From NCBI GenBank assembly GCA_964291415.2, contig OZ219920.1, positions 1,184,001-1,248,000 on the forward strand: 64,000 bases of DNA, given 5' to 3'. The translations under genes were made by a program, and so were the position numbers. The notes below the pieces were generated by a model. The model made no database searches, had not been told where the DNA came from, and saw nothing but the letters and a program-made list of their open reading frames with translations. Each line of letters begins with the position of its first letter. The stretch's first letter is position 1. Shown piece after piece: positions 44,463 to 51,843 of the stretch. The stretch is from Alphaproteobacteria bacterium (GTDB taxonomy: Bacteria; Pseudomonadota; Alphaproteobacteria; SP197).

Positions 44463-45596
44463 TCACGCCTGCAGCCAGGCCAGGGCAATGCGCCGGTAGA
44501 GTTCGACTGCCCTTTCGACATCGCTCACCATGACGTGTTCATCGGTCCTGCCACTCATGCCGAGGCGCCCCGGACCGATGATGACCATGGGAAGATCAAA
44601 GGCAGGCGACAGGACTGCTGCGTCGGAATAGTAGGATGCGCCGCCAGGTTGAGCCGGCATTCCACGTTCAGCCGAGACCACGTCAAGGCACAGGTGTGCA
44701 AAGGGATGATCGCGCGCAGTCTCGACCGCCGGCTTGTGATCGAGGCGCTCGAGTTCGAGGTCACGGCCGACATGATCGAGAATGTGCCTTTCTACCTCGT
44801 CGGCCACCATGCCCGGCAGCGTGCGGATGTCGATGTCGATTTCGCACCTGTCCGGGGTCAGGTTCACCACCGTTCCGCCCTCGATGCGTCCTGCGCTCAC
44901 GGTCGGCAGACCAAGAAGGGGATGCGGGCAAACGTCGAAACTCAGTGTACGCAGGTCGCACAGAACGTCGGTCATGCGTTCGATGGCGCTGCCGCGGGAT
45001 CCCTCCTCGGCCGACGGATGCCCCGATGACCCATGGGCGGTCAGACGCAGCCACAGGGCGCCCTTCTCCGCCAGCAGCACCTCCATCGACGACGGTTCGC
45101 TCACGAGCAGTGCTCCTGCGCCTTCCAGAGCGCGGGACCGAGAGAGTTCTGCTGCACCGAGACAGTTCGAGCTCTCCCCGGCGGTGAAGGCAAGCACAAG
45201 GTCACCGGTGAGCACCGCCGGTCCGGCCGCGAGTGATTCGGCGGCGACGATCATCGCCGCCATGCCGCTCTTCATGTCGGCTGCACCGCGGCCGTGAAGG
45301 GCGCCATCGACGATCTGCGCACCGAAGGGATCGTGGGTCCATTCTTCGTTGCCAAGCGGAACGGTGTCGAAGTGAGCGGAGAACACGAGAGCGGGCCGTT
45401 CTCCCCTCCCCTTGAGCCGTGCCACGACATTGGCCCGTCCGGAGGTGAATTCGTCGAGAACGCTGTCGATTCCGGCCCCCAGGAGACGATCGTGGACAAC
45501 TCGCGCCATGTCGATTTCGCAGCCAGGCGGATCGCGGGTGTCCATCCTGACCAGCGTCTGCAGAAGTTCCGTCACGCTGGACCGTTCCATGATCAT
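44463..45596 (-). CDS. M20 metallopeptidase, ArgE/DapE family
   Basis: SAHFDTVP, HGRGAADMKSG, TAGES, SEPS; the C-terminal His position appears replaced (GMSGRTDEH). Confidence 0.85.
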   Translation of the reverse strand: MIMERSSVTELLQTLVRMDTRDPPGCEIDMARVVHDRLLGAGIDSVLDEFTSGRANVVARLKGRGERPALVFSAHFDTVPLGNEEWTHDPFGAQIVDGALHGRGAADMKSGMAAMIVAAESLAAGPAVLTGDLVLAFTAGESSNCLGAAELSRSRALEGAGALLVSEPSSMEVLLAEKGALWLRLTAHGSSGHPSAEEGSRGSAIERMTDVLCDLRTLSFDVCPHPLLGLPTVSAGRIEGGTVVNLTPDRCEIDIDIRTLPGMVADEVERHILDHVGRDLELERLDHKPAVETARDHPFAHLCLDVVSAERGMPAQPGGASYYSDAAVLSPAFDLPMVIIGPGRLGMSGRTDEHVMVSDVERAVELYRRIALAWLQA

Positions 45597-45699
45597 CCCG
45601 CCTGCGTCATCCTGCGGGCACTCTGCCACGACACGTGCTCCTGACAAGACTGAAACGGCGGGATACGATGGACTCATCGTCGCCAGGAGGAGCGCAGTC

Positions 45700-47760
45700 A
45701 TGGCACGGGACAGCCGCTACGACATCCTCTTCAAGCCCATTGCCATCGGGCCGGTCACAGCTCCCAACAGATTCTACCAGGTGCCCCACTGCTCGGGCAT
45801 GGGATTTGCCCTTCCGCAGACCCTCAATGCCATGCGAGGGATCAAGGCCGAAGGCGGTTGGGGCGTCGTGTGCACCGAGTACTGCTCCATTGATCCTTCT
45901 TCAGATGATTTCGGTCACCACTACTGCACCCTGTGGGATGACGACGATGTCAGCGTTCAGGCCGCCATGGTCGAGGCGGTACACCGGCACGGATCGCTTG
46001 CCGGAGTTGAGTTGTGGCACGGCGGCTATGCCTCGAACAACGCTCTCACGCGGGTCATTCCGGCAGCTCCGATGTCCATGCCGGTGTGGCATGGCTTCAC
46101 GCAGACCAGGGCCATGGACAAGGCCGACATCCGGGAGTTCCGCCGTCTGCACCGGCTGTCGGCCCTTCGTGCCCGCGAAGCGGGATTTGATCTGGTCTAC
46201 GTCTATGCGGCGCACGGTTATCTTCCGGCCCAGTTCCTCTCGCCCGTCCAGAACCAGCGCTGTGACGAATACGGAGGCAGCTTCGAGAATCGGGCGCGGC
46301 TGATCCGGGAACTGCTGGAGGAGACCCGGGAGGCTGTCGGTGACCGGTGCGGCGTCGTGCTGCGCTTTGCCGTCGACAACCTCGATACCGACATGGGCAT
46401 CACGTGCGACGGCGAAGGACGTGATCTTGTCGAGTTCGTGGCCGAGCTTCCGGACCTCTGGGACGTCAATATCGCGAACTTTCCGGCCGACGCCCGTACC
46501 GCACGCTTCGCCGAAGAGGGTGCCCAGGAAGACTACATTGCCTTCGTCAAGCAGGTGACCACGAAGCCGGTTGTGGCGGTGGGTCGCTACACCTCGCCGG
46601 ACCGCATGGTGTCGGTCATCAACAAGGGACTCATGGATCTCATTGGCGCGGCCCGGCCATCGATCGCCGATCCCTTCCTCCCGGCCAAGATCCGTGACGG
46701 TCGCCTCGAGGACATCCGCGAGTGCATCGGCTGCAACATCTGCATCCTCAGCAACGGCCTGGGCGTGCCGTTGAGATGCACGCAGAATCCGACCATGGGC
46801 GAGGAATGGCGGCGTGGGTGGCATCCCGAGATCATTGCTGGGGCCTCGTCTGATGAGAAAGTGCTCGTGGTTGGCGCCGGACCTGCCGGACTTGAAGCGG
46901 CTCTCTCGGCCGGGCGCCGGGGCTACACGGTGGCGCTCGCCGAAGCCACCACCGAACTCGGAGGGCGGGTAAGCCGGGAGGCGACGCTGGCAGGCCTTTC
47001 GACATGGTCGCGGGTCAGGGACTGGCGACTGGGCCAGATCGACAAACTCCCCAACGTGGAGGTCTACCGGTCGAGCAGACTGAACGCCGAGCAGGTTCTG
47101 GAGTTTGGTTTCGGACACGTGTGCATCGCCACCGGCTCGACCTGGCGGCGCGACGGCACCGGACGCTCGAGCTTCTCACCATTCGAGGGGCATGACCTCG
47201 ACGGCGTCATCACGCCCGACGACGTCATGGAAGGAACGCCCGTCGACGGCCCGGTGCTGGTCTACGACGACGATCACTTCTACATGGGCGGTGTCATCGC
47301 CGAGACGCTCGCCGGACGCGGCGTTGACGTTGTGGTCGCCACCAGCTCCGGAATCGTGTCGCCCCTGTGTACCCATACACTCGACCAGGGACGCATCGAG
47401 GCCCGTCTCATCGAGATCGGTGTCGTCACCTTGACGTCGCGCCTGCTGCGCTCCTTCGATGGCAGCGAGGCGGTTCTTGCCCACGCATCGGGATCAAAGG
47501 ATGTCACGATTCCCTGCAGAAACATCGTCGTCGTCACGTCCCGCCAGCCTGCGGATGGCCTGTGGAGGGCGGTCATGGCCCGCCAGGCGAAGCATGACGG
47601 CGCCGGCCTGAAGAGCGTGCGCCGCATTGGAGACTGCGAGGCGCCGCAGACCATCGCCGCGGCAGTCCACGCCGGCCACCTCTATGCCAGGACTCTCGAT
47701 ACGGTGGATCACGTGAAGCGCGACCGGGTCCTGGTGGCGCCAGGCGGGGGCACTTCCTGA
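45700..47760 (+). CDS. Trimethylamine/histamine dehydrogenase-family flavoprotein (FMN, [4Fe-4S])
   Basis: RFYQVPHCSGMG (Cys for 6-S-cysteinyl FMN), YVYAAHGY, ARPSIADP, CIGCNIC-x11-C, VVGAGPAG; SD AGGAGG. Confidence 0.88.
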   Translation: MARDSRYDILFKPIAIGPVTAPNRFYQVPHCSGMGFALPQTLNAMRGIKAEGGWGVVCTEYCSIDPSSDDFGHHYCTLWDDDDVSVQAAMVEAVHRHGSLAGVELWHGGYASNNALTRVIPAAPMSMPVWHGFTQTRAMDKADIREFRRLHRLSALRAREAGFDLVYVYAAHGYLPAQFLSPVQNQRCDEYGGSFENRARLIRELLEETREAVGDRCGVVLRFAVDNLDTDMGITCDGEGRDLVEFVAELPDLWDVNIANFPADARTARFAEEGAQEDYIAFVKQVTTKPVVAVGRYTSPDRMVSVINKGLMDLIGAARPSIADPFLPAKIRDGRLEDIRECIGCNICILSNGLGVPLRCTQNPTMGEEWRRGWHPEIIAGASSDEKVLVVGAGPAGLEAALSAGRRGYTVALAEATTELGGRVSREATLAGLSTWSRVRDWRLGQIDKLPNVEVYRSSRLNAEQVLEFGFGHVCIATGSTWRRDGTGRSSFSPFEGHDLDGVITPDDVMEGTPVDGPVLVYDDDHFYMGGVIAETLAGRGVDVVVATSSGIVSPLCTHTLDQGRIEARLIEIGVVTLTSRLLRSFDGSEAVLAHASGSKDVTIPCRNIVVVTSRQPADGLWRAVMARQAKHDGAGLKSVRRIGDCEAPQTIAAAVHAGHLYARTLDTVDHVKRDRVLVAPGGGTS

Positions 47761-48681
47761 TTGAGCGCGCCGCAGGCGCCCTCCCCCACCCGCAGCGCGC
47801 TGCTCTCCGGAAACGGGGCAGCGCTCGTTCTCGTGGTTGCCTGGGGCATGAACTTTCCCCTGATCGAGCAGTTGCTGGGTCACTGGGACATCCTCTCGAC
47901 GACCCTGTCGCGCCAGATCATCGGAGCCACTCTCCTCGTCATGTTGCTGTGGATACGCACGCGACGCTTCCCGATCCATCGTGCTCTGCCCTGGCGGCGC
48001 ATGACCATCCTGGGGTTCATGGGTCCGTTCTGCGCATCACTGCTGACCACGCTCGCCGTCTTCTCTGCCGGATCCGTTGCGGTTGCCATCGTCTATGCCA
48101 TGGCGCCCCTGATCGCGGCCGTGGTGGCCCGGGTGTTCTTCGCCATTTCGCCCGCCCGGGGCATCATCATCGGCATCGCTCTGGCGGTGACCGGCGGACT
48201 CGTTGTCAAGATCCACGAATTCTCCAATGCGAGCATGACGGGGGGCGAAGGATTCATGTTTCTCGCCCTGGTGACCTGGACGTGGCATTCGATCGCCGCA
48301 CAGAGGTGGCTCAAGGGCTTCAGCCAGACGGAGATCGCCGCCTACACCATCCTGCCGGGAAGCATCCTTCTCACAGTGGCTGTGTTCATCGCCTGGGCAT
48401 CGGGCCTCGCAACCCTCAACGCACCGTTGACCGAAACCACGATCGTTCTCGCCGTCGCCATCGGTGTTGTGCCGATCGCCCTCGGCAACCTTATGTGGCA
48501 CGTCGGGGTCAACAGGCTGGGCGTGACCCCCATGGCTCTGTGGGGAAACCTGGTGCCGGTAGCCGCCATTGGCCTCGCTGCCTGGTTCGGCGCCGTACCG
48601 CAACCCGCACAGATCGCCGGCGGCCTCATCATTCTGGCCGGTGTCGTCTACGCCCAGGTCGCGTCACTCAGACAGCCATAG
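47761..48681 (+). CDS. DMT/EamA family transporter
   Basis: About 10 TM segments, AWGMNF, two EamA repeats, NLVPVAA. Confidence 0.85.
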   Translation: MSAPQAPSPTRSALLSGNGAALVLVVAWGMNFPLIEQLLGHWDILSTTLSRQIIGATLLVMLLWIRTRRFPIHRALPWRRMTILGFMGPFCASLLTTLAVFSAGSVAVAIVYAMAPLIAAVVARVFFAISPARGIIIGIALAVTGGLVVKIHEFSNASMTGGEGFMFLALVTWTWHSIAAQRWLKGFSQTEIAAYTILPGSILLTVAVFIAWASGLATLNAPLTETTIVLAVAIGVVPIALGNLMWHVGVNRLGVTPMALWGNLVPVAAIGLAAWFGAVPQPAQIAGGLIILAGVVYAQVASLRQP

Positions 48682-48900
48682 GCGAGAATCTGCGGCTGCG
48701 CTTGACTGCCGCCAATCCGACAAGCACGTCACGGCCACCGCTCGAAGGCGCCAAGTGTGTCCAGCATGACTACGATCGGGCGTGAGTGGCAACCCGTCCC
48801 CTACGACAGTATTCTGCTACCCGCATGTGTCTCGGGACAGTGATCGATCCCAATCCGGGCTTGTAGCGCACGTCCCGAAAACCTGTGTGAGGCATGGGGA

Positions 48901-49887
48901 ATGACATCACTGACCCTCTGGCAAAACATCGAGTCTCGCCTCGACTCGTCGCTCAAGGGCTGGCGAGGTCGGATCGACGATCTTGACCAGCTGGCGGCAG
49001 TCGAAGCCAGGTTGGCCGGCCAGACATGGAGCGACAATGAGACCTTCAAGGGGCTGTTGCTTGCGGTGCTGTCCAGCAACACCGACTGGTCGAAGATCGA
49101 GCGAATTCAGGATGAGTTGGCACAACTGTTTTCAGAATTCGATCTCGAATCGTTTGCCGAACTTCCGGCCTGCGAGGTCGGCGACCGGTTGCTGCCTTGG
49201 TTTCTCAACCGCAAGGCGGGGTCGATGACCCTCAAGCGGAACCTCGTCAATCTCATCGACGCCGCACGGTTGCTGAACGAGCACAGCCGCAATCACGGCA
49301 CAGCGGAAAGCTATTTCACCTCACTCTTGCGACATGTTGACGGAGACCCCAAACAGGCGGCGCTTCTCTTGGGATGCCGAAGCGAGTACAAGCTCCCCGC
49401 ATTCGGGGTGGCGTTGGCTGCCGAGGCACTCAAGAACCTTGGCTTCGACGTGGCCAAGCCCGACCGCCACGTCATCCGAGCCGTCGCTTCCTTCGGGCTG
49501 GTGCCCTTCCGGAATTGGCCCGACAGAACCGGCAGGTCTTCGCCAGCTGTCTCCTCCAGAACTTCCTATCTGGCAGTCATGGGAGCCGTGCAGGATCTTG
49601 CGACGGCTGCCGGCTTGCCTGTGGTCATGGTCGACAACGCTATCTGGCTACTATGCGCAAGGAGTGGTCTTTACCTTAGCAATCCGGAACTCGCCGAGAT
49701 GGCTCGCGAGAGCCGAGATACGACGGAACGCGCACAGACCCTCGGCTCACTGATCCGTTCCTGGGCGGAAGAGCAGGACGACGGTGAGCAACGGGAAACC
49801 ATTGAAGCCCTCGTCGATGGCCTGGATCGCGAGCGACTATCCCTGCGGAAGCTCTTTCCCGAGGAGTCGAAGGGGCGGAGCTGGTGA
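48901..49887 (+). CDS. HhH-superfamily (TAG/HhH-GPD-like) DNA glycosylase-like domain fused to a C-terminal antitoxin-like tail
   Basis: SDNETFKGLLLAVLS..TDWSKI..LFSEFD..FAEL (TAG-like), KLPAFGVALA (HhH), KPDRHVIR, VDNAIW; acidic tail LIRSWAEEQDDGEQRETIEALVDGLDRERLSLRKLFP. Confidence 0.6.
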   Translation: MTSLTLWQNIESRLDSSLKGWRGRIDDLDQLAAVEARLAGQTWSDNETFKGLLLAVLSSNTDWSKIERIQDELAQLFSEFDLESFAELPACEVGDRLLPWFLNRKAGSMTLKRNLVNLIDAARLLNEHSRNHGTAESYFTSLLRHVDGDPKQAALLLGCRSEYKLPAFGVALAAEALKNLGFDVAKPDRHVIRAVASFGLVPFRNWPDRTGRSSPAVSSRTSYLAVMGAVQDLATAAGLPVVMVDNAIWLLCARSGLYLSNPELAEMARESRDTTERAQTLGSLIRSWAEEQDDGEQRETIEALVDGLDRERLSLRKLFPEESKGRSW

Positions 49888-50330
49888 CGCGCACCATATT
49901 GCTTGACAGTGGTCCTCTTGGCTTGGTCACCAATCCCAGGGCGTCGTCGATAGCTGCAGATTGCGGGGATTGGGTCGTGAACGCAATCCGCCGCGGCGCG
50001 ACAGTGTTGGTGCCTGAAATTGCTGATTATGAGGTGCGCCGGGAACTCATCAGGGCGCAACGCGACGCTGGTCTTGCGCGCCTCGACGCATTCATCGAAC
50101 AAGTTGAATTCCTGCCCATTGAAACCGCCGCAATGCGCCGAGCCGCATCGTTCTGGGCCGAAGCGCGCCGACAAGGAAGACCGACTGCACCGGATCCTGC
50201 GCTCGATGGCGACGTGATTCTGGCTGCACAGGCAGCTATTCTCGACCGCACTGATGTCATCATTGCCACGACCAATGCGAGACACCTGTCACGTTATGTC
50301 CCCGCGGAACTCTGGACCAATATCACCTGA
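49884..50330 (+). CDS. PIN-domain (VapC-like) ribonuclease toxin
   Basis: ILLDSGPL, VPEIADYEVRREL, ALDGDVILAAQA, IATTNARHL; GTGA overlap with the upstream gene. Confidence 0.88.
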   Translation: MTRTILLDSGPLGLVTNPRASSIAADCGDWVVNAIRRGATVLVPEIADYEVRRELIRAQRDAGLARLDAFIEQVEFLPIETAAMRRAASFWAEARRQGRPTAPDPALDGDVILAAQAAILDRTDVIIATTNARHLSRYVPAELWTNIT

Positions 50331-50538
50331 GTTCCGGGCCAAGCAGTTTCCAGCCGTGCCACACGCGTCCGCCAACGCTCGCATCAGCAGCCCAGCGCAA
50401 CCGATGCCCACGGGAATGGCTGTCCTCGCCCGTGAGTTGTGTCTCTGTGCCGGATGCGTGTCCGACGCCGTCATCAGCTTCGGAGCCCCAAACACACGAA
50501 GTCCTCGATGACCGCGCGGGATGTGGGTTGCGCGGGAT

Positions 50539-51843
50539 TCAGTCGCGCATCAGTTTGCGGTCGGCACGCCTCATCCAGGCGGTGATGAGAGGCAGGAACC
50601 AGGGATTGCCACGGTAGAAGGGTATGGTACGGAAGGGTCTGTCCGTGAGTGCCGTCCTGGCGTCGCTGTCGCCGAGAATGCGCTGGGCCGTCTTGTGTCC
50701 GAGCCAGGTTCCCATCGGCACGCCGGACGCACACCAGCCCATGGCGTAGTGGATGCCGTCGGCAAATCCGTTGTGGGGCAGGAAGTCGAAGGGAAAGGCG
50801 ACCTGTCCGCTCCAGCAGTGTGTCAGTTTCGTTCCCTCGAGGTCCGGCACGACCCGCAGCAGCTCCCGATGAATCCGCTGCGCCTTGTCCGGGATCGATG
50901 TGCTCCCTTCTCCCGTGGTGCCGCCGAACAGCAACCTTGTCCCGTCCTCGGTGGGCCGCAACCACAGCGGTGAATTGCGGTTCTCGATCATCGGACGTCC
51001 CCGGGGCAGGACCTTCCTCATGAGAACCGGATCGATGGCCTCGGTGACGACGTTGAAGGCCTGGACCGGGACGACCCTGCGGCGATGCCAGGGAAGGGCC
51101 TTCGGCGTGTAGCCGTTGGTGGCGACCATGACGTCACGCGCCGCCACCCTGCCCTTCGGCGTGGAAACAACAAAACCCCTGCGTTGGCGTTCGACCCCGG
51201 TCACCGGACAGTATCCGATCACGGTCGCACCCTGGGCGCGGGCGCGGTCGAGCAGGCCCTGGTGGTACAGTCCGGCATGGATGAGGCCGTTGCCGTGCAG
51301 CACCTGGCCACCGTGGTAAAGATCGCTTGCCACCTCTTCTTTCAGCTTGTCGGGCGAGATCATGTCGGCCTCCACCGGAACCCCGTCGGCCTCCATCATC
51401 TCGAGGTCGCGTTCAAGCTTCTCGTACACCTTCCTCGAGGGTGCGGTGATGAGACGGCCCGTGTTCTGGTAGAAGCAGGCAATCTGCTCGTCGCGAATGA
51501 GGCCTGCCGCAAAGTCGTGAGCCGTGGCGGCCTCGCGGGCAATGTCACCGGCAGCCTCCCGGCCGATGCGCCTGACCATGTCGCCGTACTTGAACCACAC
51601 CGTGCGGCCGAGGTAGCCGGCATTGCGGGTGCTGGCGCCGTGACCTGCGGCCTCGGCATCGAGGACGAGAACATCCCGGCCCCCTCGCGCCAGGGTGAGT
51701 GCCGCCGACAGTCCGACATTGCCGGAACCGATGACCACGACATCCGTGCTGTCAGGTGGCGCCGACTCGTCGAGCCGGGGGCGCGGCGCGAGATCCCACC
51801 AGTACGATGCTTCCTTGAAACCCTGCGCGAACATGTCCTGCAT
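50539..51843 (-). CDS. FAD-dependent amine/amino-acid oxidoreductase (DAO/PuuB-like)
   Basis: SYWWD, VIGSGNVGLSAA, GASTRNAG, VATNGY, WSGQV, GWCASGV. Confidence 0.85.
   Translation of the reverse strand: MQDMFAQGFKEASYWWDLAPRPRLDESAPPDSTDVVVIGSGNVGLSAALTLARGGRDVLVLDAEAAGHGASTRNAGYLGRTVWFKYGDMVRRIGREAAGDIAREAATAHDFAAGLIRDEQIACFYQNTGRLITAPSRKVYEKLERDLEMMEADGVPVEADMISPDKLKEEVASDLYHGGQVLHGNGLIHAGLYHQGLLDRARAQGATVIGYCPVTGVERQRRGFVVSTPKGRVAARDVMVATNGYTPKALPWHRRRVVPVQAFNVVTEAIDPVLMRKVLPRGRPMIENRNSPLWLRPTEDGTRLLFGGTTGEGSTSIPDKAQRIHRELLRVVPDLEGTKLTHCWSGQVAFPFDFLPHNGFADGIHYAMGWCASGVPMGTWLGHKTAQRILGDSDARTALTDRPFRTIPFYRGNPWFLPLITAWMRRADRKLMRD

Follow-up and report, generated by a model that had tools for sequence, protein, structure and literature searches.

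What does a protein with the fold of a DNA glycosylase do when its gene runs into that of a PIN-domain nuclease? The question is raised by two co-oriented open reading frames (ORFs) on the + strand of a 64,000-nucleotide stretch of DNA (the window) from an alphaproteobacterium (GenBank assembly GCA_964291415.2, contig OZ219920.1, positions 1,184,001–1,248,000). The first ORF (48901–49887, ATG start) codes for a protein of 328 amino acids (aa) and the second (49884–50330, GTG start) for a PIN-domain protein of 148 aa. A 4-nt overlap, GTGA at 49884–49887, joins the two genes, as the first-pass annotation of the window had described, and the pair is single-copy in its genome. We conclude that it is very probably a toxin-antitoxin cassette whose antitoxin carries an enzyme domain. 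The fuller reading towards which we lean is that of a mobile type II cassette of the VapBC kind, with the glycosylase domain of the antitoxin working as a defence-type enzyme.

The evidence for a toxin-antitoxin pair starts at the C-terminus of the 328-aa protein. Residues 269–328 (49705–49884, + strand) form an acidic helical segment (LIRSW..EQRET..L..LD.ERLS.RKLFP....W) that is predicted, from its co-occurrence with PIN genes, its homologues and a complex model, to be a VapB-like toxin-binding tail. With one genome taken per species, a pattern scan identified 58 loci with the glycosylase core, nearly all in metagenome-assembled genomes (MAGs), a count that represents a single clade of non-independent kin because the patterns came from close relatives. 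The loci belong to Alpha- and Gammaproteobacteria, Bryobacterales, Binatia, Gemmatimonadota, Latescibacterota and other groups. With tblastn, the tail (aa ~269–328) was found in 36 of the 58 loci and the PIN in exactly those 36; the other 22 had neither. The PIN match starts within the upstream stop codon or immediately after it in the 36 tail loci and, where the PIN is intact (26 loci), at the last base of the upstream match, within the stop codon. The fusion is thus neither confined to one genome nor an assembly join, two possibilities that the first-pass annotation had named as refuting it, and its homologues are mostly full-length. There are 367 homologues of the 328-aa protein at E ≤ 1e-3 and, among the 120 listed, 113 span 98% or more of the query and 66 have the same length of exactly 328 aa.

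The pair also decays in one direction. Both genes are intact in 25 of the 36 tail loci, an intact tail-bearing glycosylase gene stands beside a broken or partial PIN in six, both are broken in four, and an intact PIN without a tail-bearing partner was found in none. One more locus (L018) has an intact PIN and a tail that is 7 residues shorter, ending at 'KLFP' as many small antitoxins do. Broken toxins beside intact partners, and never the reverse, are what a toxin-antitoxin dependency predicts. Three MAGs of Candidatus Foliamicus (L028, L031 and L055) illustrate this: the tail-bearing gene is intact, whereas of the PIN right after it there remains no more than a third to a half, from the C-terminal end (query residues 101–147 in L028 and L031, 78–147 in L055), which on sequence reads as decay of the toxin with retention of the antitoxin. 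Two metagenome gene calls rearrange the same parts. P0239 (75 aa) joins the first 29 residues of the glycosylase protein to the tail, with the core deleted and a mini-antitoxin left, and P0270 joins the N-terminus of the PIN to the tail.

The tail is not restricted to glycosylase proteins. The PIN belongs to a family in which at least 7880 of 8000 scored candidates match at E ≤ 1e-3, compared with the 367 homologues of its 328-aa partner. When metagenomes were scanned with the PIN alignment, 80 loci were retained from 471 relatives; their PINs are 49–84% identical (49–65% when locus L062 is set aside). In 78 of these 80 loci an open frame stops no more than ~40 nt away from the PIN start, and tblastn placed the tail directly upstream of the PIN in 57 of the 80 (E ≤ 0.1, best 5e-12). 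The glycosylase core is present in L062 alone, whereas the other 56 are small ORFs that usually overlap the PIN by 4 nt. These are the small stand-alone proteins, encoded upstream of this PIN subfamily, that the first-pass annotation had likened to the tail. Such pairs also occur on cyanobacterial plasmids, for example plasmid NZ_CP091915.1 of Nostoc sp. UHCC 0870, where the 94-aa 'hypothetical protein' and the 'nuclease' overlap by 4 nt. The small pairs share with the window cassette the homologous tail motif, the PIN family and the 4-nt overlap, and differ from it in antitoxin size (~70–95 aa) and in their rarity of glycosylase cores (1 of 80 metagenome loci).

Aligned tails follow the pattern L..SW ... 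EQ.ET ... L..LD.DRLS.R.LFP....W, with L..SW, T, D..R, FP and W invariant. The heads that precede them vary: some are ribbon-helix-helix (RHH)-like, others HTH_17 or AF2212-like, and others have no recognizable domain. A crude pattern for the RHH-like head ('MTLTL.LPPELEQ') was found in at least 18 of 78 cases, and heads of this type gave weak matches to FitA-like RHH, ParD, HicB, TraY and RelB-like families. The HTH_17 head was identified in L099 (E 1.8e-9) and the AF2212-like head in L106 and L126 (E 2.5e-7 and 8.6e-11). A word-index search for short tail proteins added two matches among four candidates, both likely fragments. The homology of the tail to those of small antitoxins with DNA-binding heads bears out its initial description as an antitoxin-like module and suggests that, in the window protein, the small head was exchanged for a glycosylase domain.

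Two of the metagenome loci have two separate tail-like coding stretches each (2774–2929 and 3240–3398 in L087; 3843–4001 and 5899–6060 in L111), suggesting tandem or nearby second antitoxin-PIN modules. A candidate fusion in L094 (1603–4005), an 801-codon frame running from a Helicase_C domain to a small antitoxin, was rejected. The frame becomes Arg/Gly/Pro-rich and of low complexity after the helicase domain, in G+C-rich DNA, and is therefore probably an out-of-frame read-through artefact.

The product of the second gene (49884–50330, + strand, its GTG start overlapping the upstream stop) resembles VapC toxins. Pfam PIN matched it at E 1.7e-3 (19.4 bits; cut-off 23.6 bits). Its AlphaFold2 (AF2) model, with a predicted local distance difference test (pLDDT) score of 84, has VapC toxins as best matches (E 1e-5 to 1e-3), including those of Shigella, the F-plasmid and Rickettsia, FitB, and mycobacterial VapCs. 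The acidic residues that had been noticed in the translation are conserved across 23 sequences, with D8, D108 and D110 invariant and E50 conserved in at least 90%. Modelled in isolation, tail residues 270–328 are helical at low confidence. Modelled with the PIN, residues 262–328 gave a complex with an ipSAE score of 0.85, compared with 0.00 for the best of three controls, and passed a mark also reached by 58 of 80 complexes of known structure and by 2 of 110 mismatched pairs. This modelling had been proposed as a check of the tail, and the runs agreed in at least 97% of contacts, with a partner pLDDT of at least 84. The modelled tail touches PIN residues 8–10, 50–55, 108–110 and 129–131, that is, the acidic site. 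Since VapBC complexes have already been solved, the pass may partly reflect likeness to them. As predicted, then, the pair looks like a VapBC complex with the tail covering the acidic active site of the toxin.

VapBC pairs of known structure (Shigella 3tnd, F-plasmid 9h6a, Rickettsia felis VapBC2 3zvk and Neisseria FitAB 2h1c) share with the window cassette a PIN toxin with conserved acidic residues, an upstream antitoxin gene with a 4-nt overlap, the mobile two-gene arrangement and an antitoxin whose C-terminal tail covers the PIN active site, a feature that is predicted here. They differ in the antitoxin head, which in the window is a 268-aa helix-hairpin-helix (HhH) glycosylase fold rather than an autoregulatory RHH, AbrB, helix-turn-helix or PHD domain. 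The window cassette also lacks a conserved operator that travels with it, and its matches to curated VapC and PIN models fall below their cut-offs. Four independent lines support the toxin-antitoxin part of our reading well: the homology of the tail, its strict co-occurrence with the PIN, the decay in one direction and the model of the complex.

The head itself (residues 1–268; 48901–49704, + strand) is barely visible to sequence profiles. Pfam Adenine_glyco matched aa 44–144 at E 1.4e-3 (19 bits; cut-off 25), Ogg-HhH matched at E 0.12 (12.4 bits; cut-off 27), and the NCBIfam N-glycosylase/DNA lyase model PRK01229 matched aa 44–251 at E 1.1e-3 (18.4 bits versus a cut-off of 183). The PADLOC OGG model aligned with 36 residues (E 8.4e-5). 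A confident match to a system model of PADLOC-DB v2 was not found for either protein, and the PIN had no match at all. The fold emerged from an AF2 model built from 19 homologues, in which residues 1–255 are confident and the core pLDDT is mostly 85–96. Foldseek identified Ogg2 enzymes as its best match, with MjOgg at E 6.9e-5 and a template modelling score of 0.70 of the target. VIA-align superposed it on MjOgg with Z 16.0 and a root-mean-square deviation of 3.3 Å over 202 of 206 residues, followed by MutY, EndoIII, MagIII, OGG1 and a queuine-salvage enzyme at Z 11–14. Each of the 50 entries listed by VIA-align is either a DNA glycosylase of the HhH superfamily or the queuine-salvage enzyme DUF2419. 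By its model, the core is a two-domain, all-helical HhH DNA-glycosylase fold. The first-pass annotation had recognized the superfamily and called the domain TAG-like; the structure matches fit the label Ogg2-like better.

Residue-level comparison with MjOgg places the parts of an active site in the core. Residues 164–193 (49390–49479, + strand) comprise the HhH (KLPAFGVALAAEALKNLG) and the K186-P-D188-R-H190 loop in the alignment to 3fhf and 3knt. With phmmer, aa 167–193 (AFGVALAAEALKNLGFDVAKPDRHVIR) aligned with the HhH and catalytic-Asp stretches of MjOgg, and D188 fell on the Asp of the MjOgg sequence IIDRH, the catalytic position already suspected in KPDRHVIR. Residues D245-N-A-I-W249 (49633–49647, + strand), a conserved pocket-like motif, aligned with 'DLYIW'. 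Across 59 family members, tail-bearing and tail-less and down to 24% identity, E175, G181, K186, D188, H190, R193 and W249 are invariant, and D245, K164, N179 and others are conserved in at least 90%. The Ogg2 enzymes MjOgg (3knt/3fhf), Tm1821 (3n0u) and SsOgg (3fhg) match the whole chain at Z 15–16, with the HhH, the Asp and D-x-x-I-W aligned. They differ from the window core, which is ~20% identical to them, has ~60 extra residues and carries Ala or Pro in place of the Lys nucleophile; its family, moreover, has the invariant K-P-D-R-H, a mobile and patchy spread and the C-terminal antitoxin tail. Retention of the Asp and the pocket motif without the Schiff-base Lys means that the enzyme, if active, would be monofunctional. 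On sequence grounds, the core is most likely a monofunctional base-flipping enzyme that would act on a damaged or modified purine, and we consider it somewhat more likely than not that the domain is catalytically competent.

The core also constitutes a separate protein family. When 1.84 billion representatives were scanned in full with HMMER, 448 proteins matched at E ≤ 1e-3; of these, 206 passed E ≤ 1e-10 and 90 passed E ≤ 1e-30. The full-length matches mostly stand alone, at 265–295 aa, and stop where the tail starts in the 328-aa protein. For the 328-aa form, no public name was found other than 'hypothetical protein', and its ESM Atlas neighbours are 'hypothetical protein' clusters of 250–269 aa. 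Some members have N-terminal extensions of ~120–160 aa, part of them with weak DUF7225 or DUF7669 matches. Others carry C-terminal additions: a REase-ARP/PD-(D/E)xK domain is fused to the core in P0134 (E 6.5e-45) and P0196 (E 6.6e-44) and a DUF7225 domain in P0273 (E 6.5e-32). With P0249, P0131, P0140 and P0141, these proteins place REase-ARP/PD-(D/E)xK, DUF7225 or DUF7669 at either end of the core. A tail-less homologue (27% identity, annotated as a hypothetical protein) is encoded on plasmid NZ_CP080768.1 of Cupriavidus pinatubonensis (202367–203251; L164), with imuA and a gene for a Y-family polymerase ~2 kb away.

In three Bryobacterales loci (L030, 5998–7884; L036; L045), a core that is 48–56% identical to the window core continues in frame into ~330 residues matching the PADLOC defence candidate PDC-S18 (E 1.3e-66 in L030, the copy scanned); L044 is a truncated copy. 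Neither a Pfam family nor a PDB sequence match was found for this extension, which has a 24-residue NucS-like match (E 0.018) with a D..E.K stretch. Fusions to PDC-S18-like and REase-ARP (PF22558) domains resemble the window protein in joining the glycosylase core to a nuclease-type effector. They differ in that the effector is covalent and of the PD-(D/E)xK type, whereas in the window it is the PIN, a protein on its own that is linked by way of an antitoxin tail. The persistence of the core without tail and PIN, and its fusion elsewhere to DNA nucleases, suggest a working enzyme or sensor rather than a mere operator-binding head. From these architectures, the core appears to be combined with exchangeable effectors, either the PIN through the tail or PDC-S18 and REase-ARP domains by fusion.

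The cassette is a mobile insertion with a foreign look. It lies between the gene of an EamA-like transporter, which ends at 48681, and a convergent gene for a D-amino-acid oxidase (DAO)-type FAD oxidoreductase, which ends at 50539. The spacers, first estimated at about 200 bp, measure 219 and 208 bp. G+C content across the pair is 0.58–0.62, compared with 0.62–0.68 in the surroundings, and G+C at third codon positions is 0.72 in the glycosylase gene and 0.58 in the PIN gene versus 0.75–0.81 in four neighbouring genes, in line with the excess of A/T-ending codons seen at first inspection. The flanking genes are conserved in 18 same-genus genomes, and the inserted segment, cassette plus two spacers (48739–50509), is absent from the same site in G406, where the flanks (up to 48738 and from 50510) lie 119 bp apart. 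The site is likewise empty in G410 (125 bp) and spans ~480 bp in G414. Other genomes hold different cargo there: a PADLOC PDC-S01 ATPase (E 1.7e-161) and a pyridoxal-phosphate (PLP) decarboxylase in G404, one large ORF each (~530–545 aa) in G412, G401 and G416, with the G412 copy matching the same PLP decarboxylase as in G404, and a Calx-beta protein in G413. The EamA-like/DAO-type intergenic site (48682–50538; loci L152–L159) is thus a variable spot in the genus.

Congeners carry the cassette at other places (G414, 78% identity; G416, 81%; G402, 73%). Similarity among these copies is limited to window positions 48891–50354, that is, to the two ORFs, and no DNA is common upstream of ~10 nt before the start codon. 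The moving unit is therefore the bare gene pair, and an upstream operator does not travel along. At larger distances the family crosses phyla at 44–85% identity, largely in sponge-associated MAGs. Pieces at least 95% identical were recovered, besides the best holder, from three runs labelled as sponge metagenomes in three studies, one of them a metatranscriptome. An alignment of the PIN run against 400 other genomes of the same phylum returned no match at E ≤ 1e-5 in those searched. In a tree of 47 cores, from which 12 of the 58 loci were omitted as partial or interrupted, different phyla interleave, tail-bearing forms fall on both sides of the midpoint root, and tail-less forms and PDC-S18 fusions nest among them. 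Tail state changes at least three times as forced by starred branches and four times by parsimony, counts in which gains are not told from losses, as the root was not inferred.

A defence function for the enzyme would fit a class of mobile glycosylases described recently. According to a preprint (Getz et al., 2025; bioRxiv 10.1101/2025.10.29.685425), Vibrio integrons encode a diverse set of stand-alone Dag glycosylases of the HhH superfamily that protect against phages with 7-deazaguanine DNA; Dag1 requires K118, D184 and W188, works through a Lys-Asp pair and seems to be bifunctional. Dag enzymes and the window core share the HhH-superfamily fold, the level at which likeness is shown, and both move horizontally and are missed by standard family models. 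The four-residue spacing of D184 and W188 is also that of D245 and W249, both conserved in the window family; an equivalent of K118 could not be placed in the core, though K186 and K164 are conserved. Dag proteins differ in being stand-alone, single-gene effectors, and a term search of the preprint found no mention of a toxin, a PIN or a fusion (Getz et al., 2025).

On the reading towards which we lean, the PIN would be the toxin, a Mg-dependent RNase by analogy with VapC, and the last ~60 residues of its partner would wrap around it as a VapB-like tail and cover the acidic site, as the model predicts. The core would act as a defence-type glycosylase that, like Dag enzymes, destroys phage DNA with modified guanines. 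Being locked to a toxin, the glycosylase gene could not be lost without consequence: loss, depletion or inactivation of the antitoxin would free the PIN and arrest the cell, serving as addiction and/or as an abortive-infection back-up. The role in defence, taken by itself, is possible, with the balance tilting slightly against it.

Several observations weigh against this reading, beyond the kinship of the 58 loci. Every Pfam, NCBIfam and PADLOC match of the two proteins is either short or below its curated cut-off. In the core, A171 occupies the position of the MjOgg Schiff-base Lys (K in 3fhf; Q in the DNA-complex mutant 3knt), and 19 relatives have A or P there. The conserved Asp of HhH-GPD proteins also caps a helix, and its conservation is no proof of catalysis. 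The fourth acidic position of the PIN is an Asn (N131). As to defence, the genes flanking the cassette in the window are metabolic, and the core had two weak matches in viral contigs, both partial (36–89 residues at 33% and 44% identity). Within 1.8 kb of the cassette, 8 of 111 ORFs, in 6 of 34 tail-bearing loci, match PADLOC models at E ≤ 1e-10, a count made without a background control and leaving out 8 ORFs of L055 and L058. These matches are to mad2 (two loci), mad3/mad8, AbiEi, HmaB and two cysteine-desulfurase-like SspA/DndA proteins. Clustering of 593 naive ORFs from the 58 loci identified no recurrent neighbour, antisense shadow ORFs and synteny among close kin excepted. Around the 22 tail-less loci the neighbours are mixed (AAA_21, IS110, Abi_C, N6/N4 methylase and ArdC, together with CstA, TrpB-like, MFS and peptidase genes). 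The survey of homologous neighbourhoods that the first-pass annotation had called for came out in two ways: the fusion recurs coupled to the PIN, and the defence-island context is weak.

A variant of the defence reading, close to the mechanism put forward in the first-pass annotation (modified-base sensing, or bait for a phage inhibitor, that sets the PIN free), makes the core a sensor instead of an effector. The core would be a base-flipping reader of DNA, coupled time and again to nuclease effectors that can replace one another, and its engagement with modified phage DNA, or an attack on it by a phage anti-glycosylase protein, would cause the tail to drop the PIN. We think this variant unlikely as a whole, and similarly doubt its central step, the release of the PIN by DNA binding at the glycosylase head.

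An explanation without phages also has to be weighed, namely that an ordinary DNA-repair glycosylase for oxidized or alkylated purines was captured by a selfish VapBC-type module, with the fusion doing no more than guarding the repair gene against loss (addiction) or with the glycosylase as a passenger. The nearest structures are indeed repair enzymes (Ogg2, MutY, EndoIII and MagIII), most neighbours of the cassette are housekeeping genes, the Cupriavidus plasmid homologue lies close to imuA and a Y-family polymerase gene, and PIN decay beside an intact glycosylase-tail gene in 6 of 36 loci is what an independently useful enzyme would produce. One would not, however, expect a core repair enzyme to be patchy, to change position between congeners or to turn up in different phyla. 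The fusions in which this core is joined to a PADLOC defence candidate or to a nuclease of the restriction type point instead to conflict systems. Capture of a repair enzyme is accordingly rather unlikely in our estimate.

If, on the other hand, the glycosylase fold were catalytically dead, the cassette would be an ordinary VapBC pair in which a DNA-binding or oligomerization head for autoregulation has replaced the RHH domain. The core sits exactly where its kin have RHH, HTH_17 or AF2212-like heads, and the absence of the Schiff-base Lys would suit a dead enzyme. No operator, however, travels with the congener copies, which have no common DNA above ~10 nt before the start codon. A promoter/terminator scan of 48500–50700 found no promoter-like site and four terminator-like sites (1.3 expected), every one within ORFs, and a repeat search around the cassette revealed neither flanking direct repeats nor a convincing operator palindrome. 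A 268-aa DNA binder of the lesion-recognizing type would also be an odd reader of operators. Furthermore, members with and without the tail are alike in keeping the putative active-site residues invariant, tail-less descendants persist without a PIN, and the core is fused to nucleases in other lineages, all of which argue that it is more than a DNA-binding substitute. We therefore regard a dead head as improbable.

Least probable of all is a two-subunit DNA-targeting enzyme in which the tail docks the PIN so that it cuts at or near abasic sites made by the core, an idea that draws on the covalent fusion of the core to PD-(D/E)xK-type nucleases in other lineages and on the established need of a monofunctional glycosylase for a strand-cutting partner, but that runs against the homology of the tail to those of small antitoxins with DNA-binding heads, its modelled position on the PIN catalytic residues (inhibition rather than mere docking), the VapC RNase toxins as nearest PIN structures, and the toxin-antitoxin signature of broken PINs beside intact partners.

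Two further observations concern the window. A sponge metatranscriptome run yielded one 265-nt contig identical to 48744–49003, with the remaining cassette uncovered; DNA can contaminate RNA libraries, and the contig is at most a weak hint of expression. Farther out in the window are an old yellow enzyme (OYE)-like flavoprotein and an AMP-dependent ligase. The former is encoded by an ORF of 782 aa read from a TTG start (45412–47760), with OYE-like FMN and FAD/NAD(P) domains of the 2,4-dienoyl-CoA-reductase type. Its first ~100 residues have no domain match, and the true start is therefore probably farther downstream.

The cassette combines two known kinds of element, VapBC modules and mobile HhH glycosylases, and is not a categorically new system. 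Antitoxins with an enzymatic domain are known: those of DarG (a macrodomain, in DarTG) and MntA (type VII) act on nucleic acid or on the toxin. Their activity undoes or blocks the action of the toxin, whereas the window antitoxin appears to neutralize by means of a binding tail and its enzyme domain has no evident link to PIN chemistry. Among defence glycosylases, Brig1, reportedly described in Nature in 2024, is said to have a uracil-DNA glycosylase fold, unlike the HhH core. Brig3 is likewise a defence glycosylase of another fold. The initial belief that the architecture had no prior description holds within our searches: literature queries combining glycosylase with antitoxin, PIN or VapBC, and queries for the fused domains, returned no paper on it, and passages of PMC13092281, PMC13160076 and PMC7159879 do not describe it.

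The usual picture of a type II antitoxin is a small protein that binds DNA and holds the toxin with its tail. The window antitoxin has a complete enzyme domain as its head; domains of this kind have recently been shown to act as phage-defence effectors, and the core itself also occurs alone or fused to DNA nucleases. The tail proteins and PINs carry only the names 'hypothetical protein' and 'nuclease' in public annotation. If the enzyme is active, the cassette would offer a testable case of a toxin-antitoxin module coupled to the recognition of DNA modification or damage. It would also open a new, unannotated glycosylase family, with its 448 representatives at E ≤ 1e-3, to screening for modified-base specificity, and define a portable (predicted) PIN-binding peptide common to a very large PIN family. 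Should the sensor variant prove true, the pair would be a guard-type abortive-infection switch assembled from a DNA-repair enzyme and a VapBC module, and the first toxin-antitoxin system in which the antitoxin reads DNA chemistry. The distribution of the cassette adds to the picture of heavy cassette exchange among sponge-associated bacteria of different phyla.

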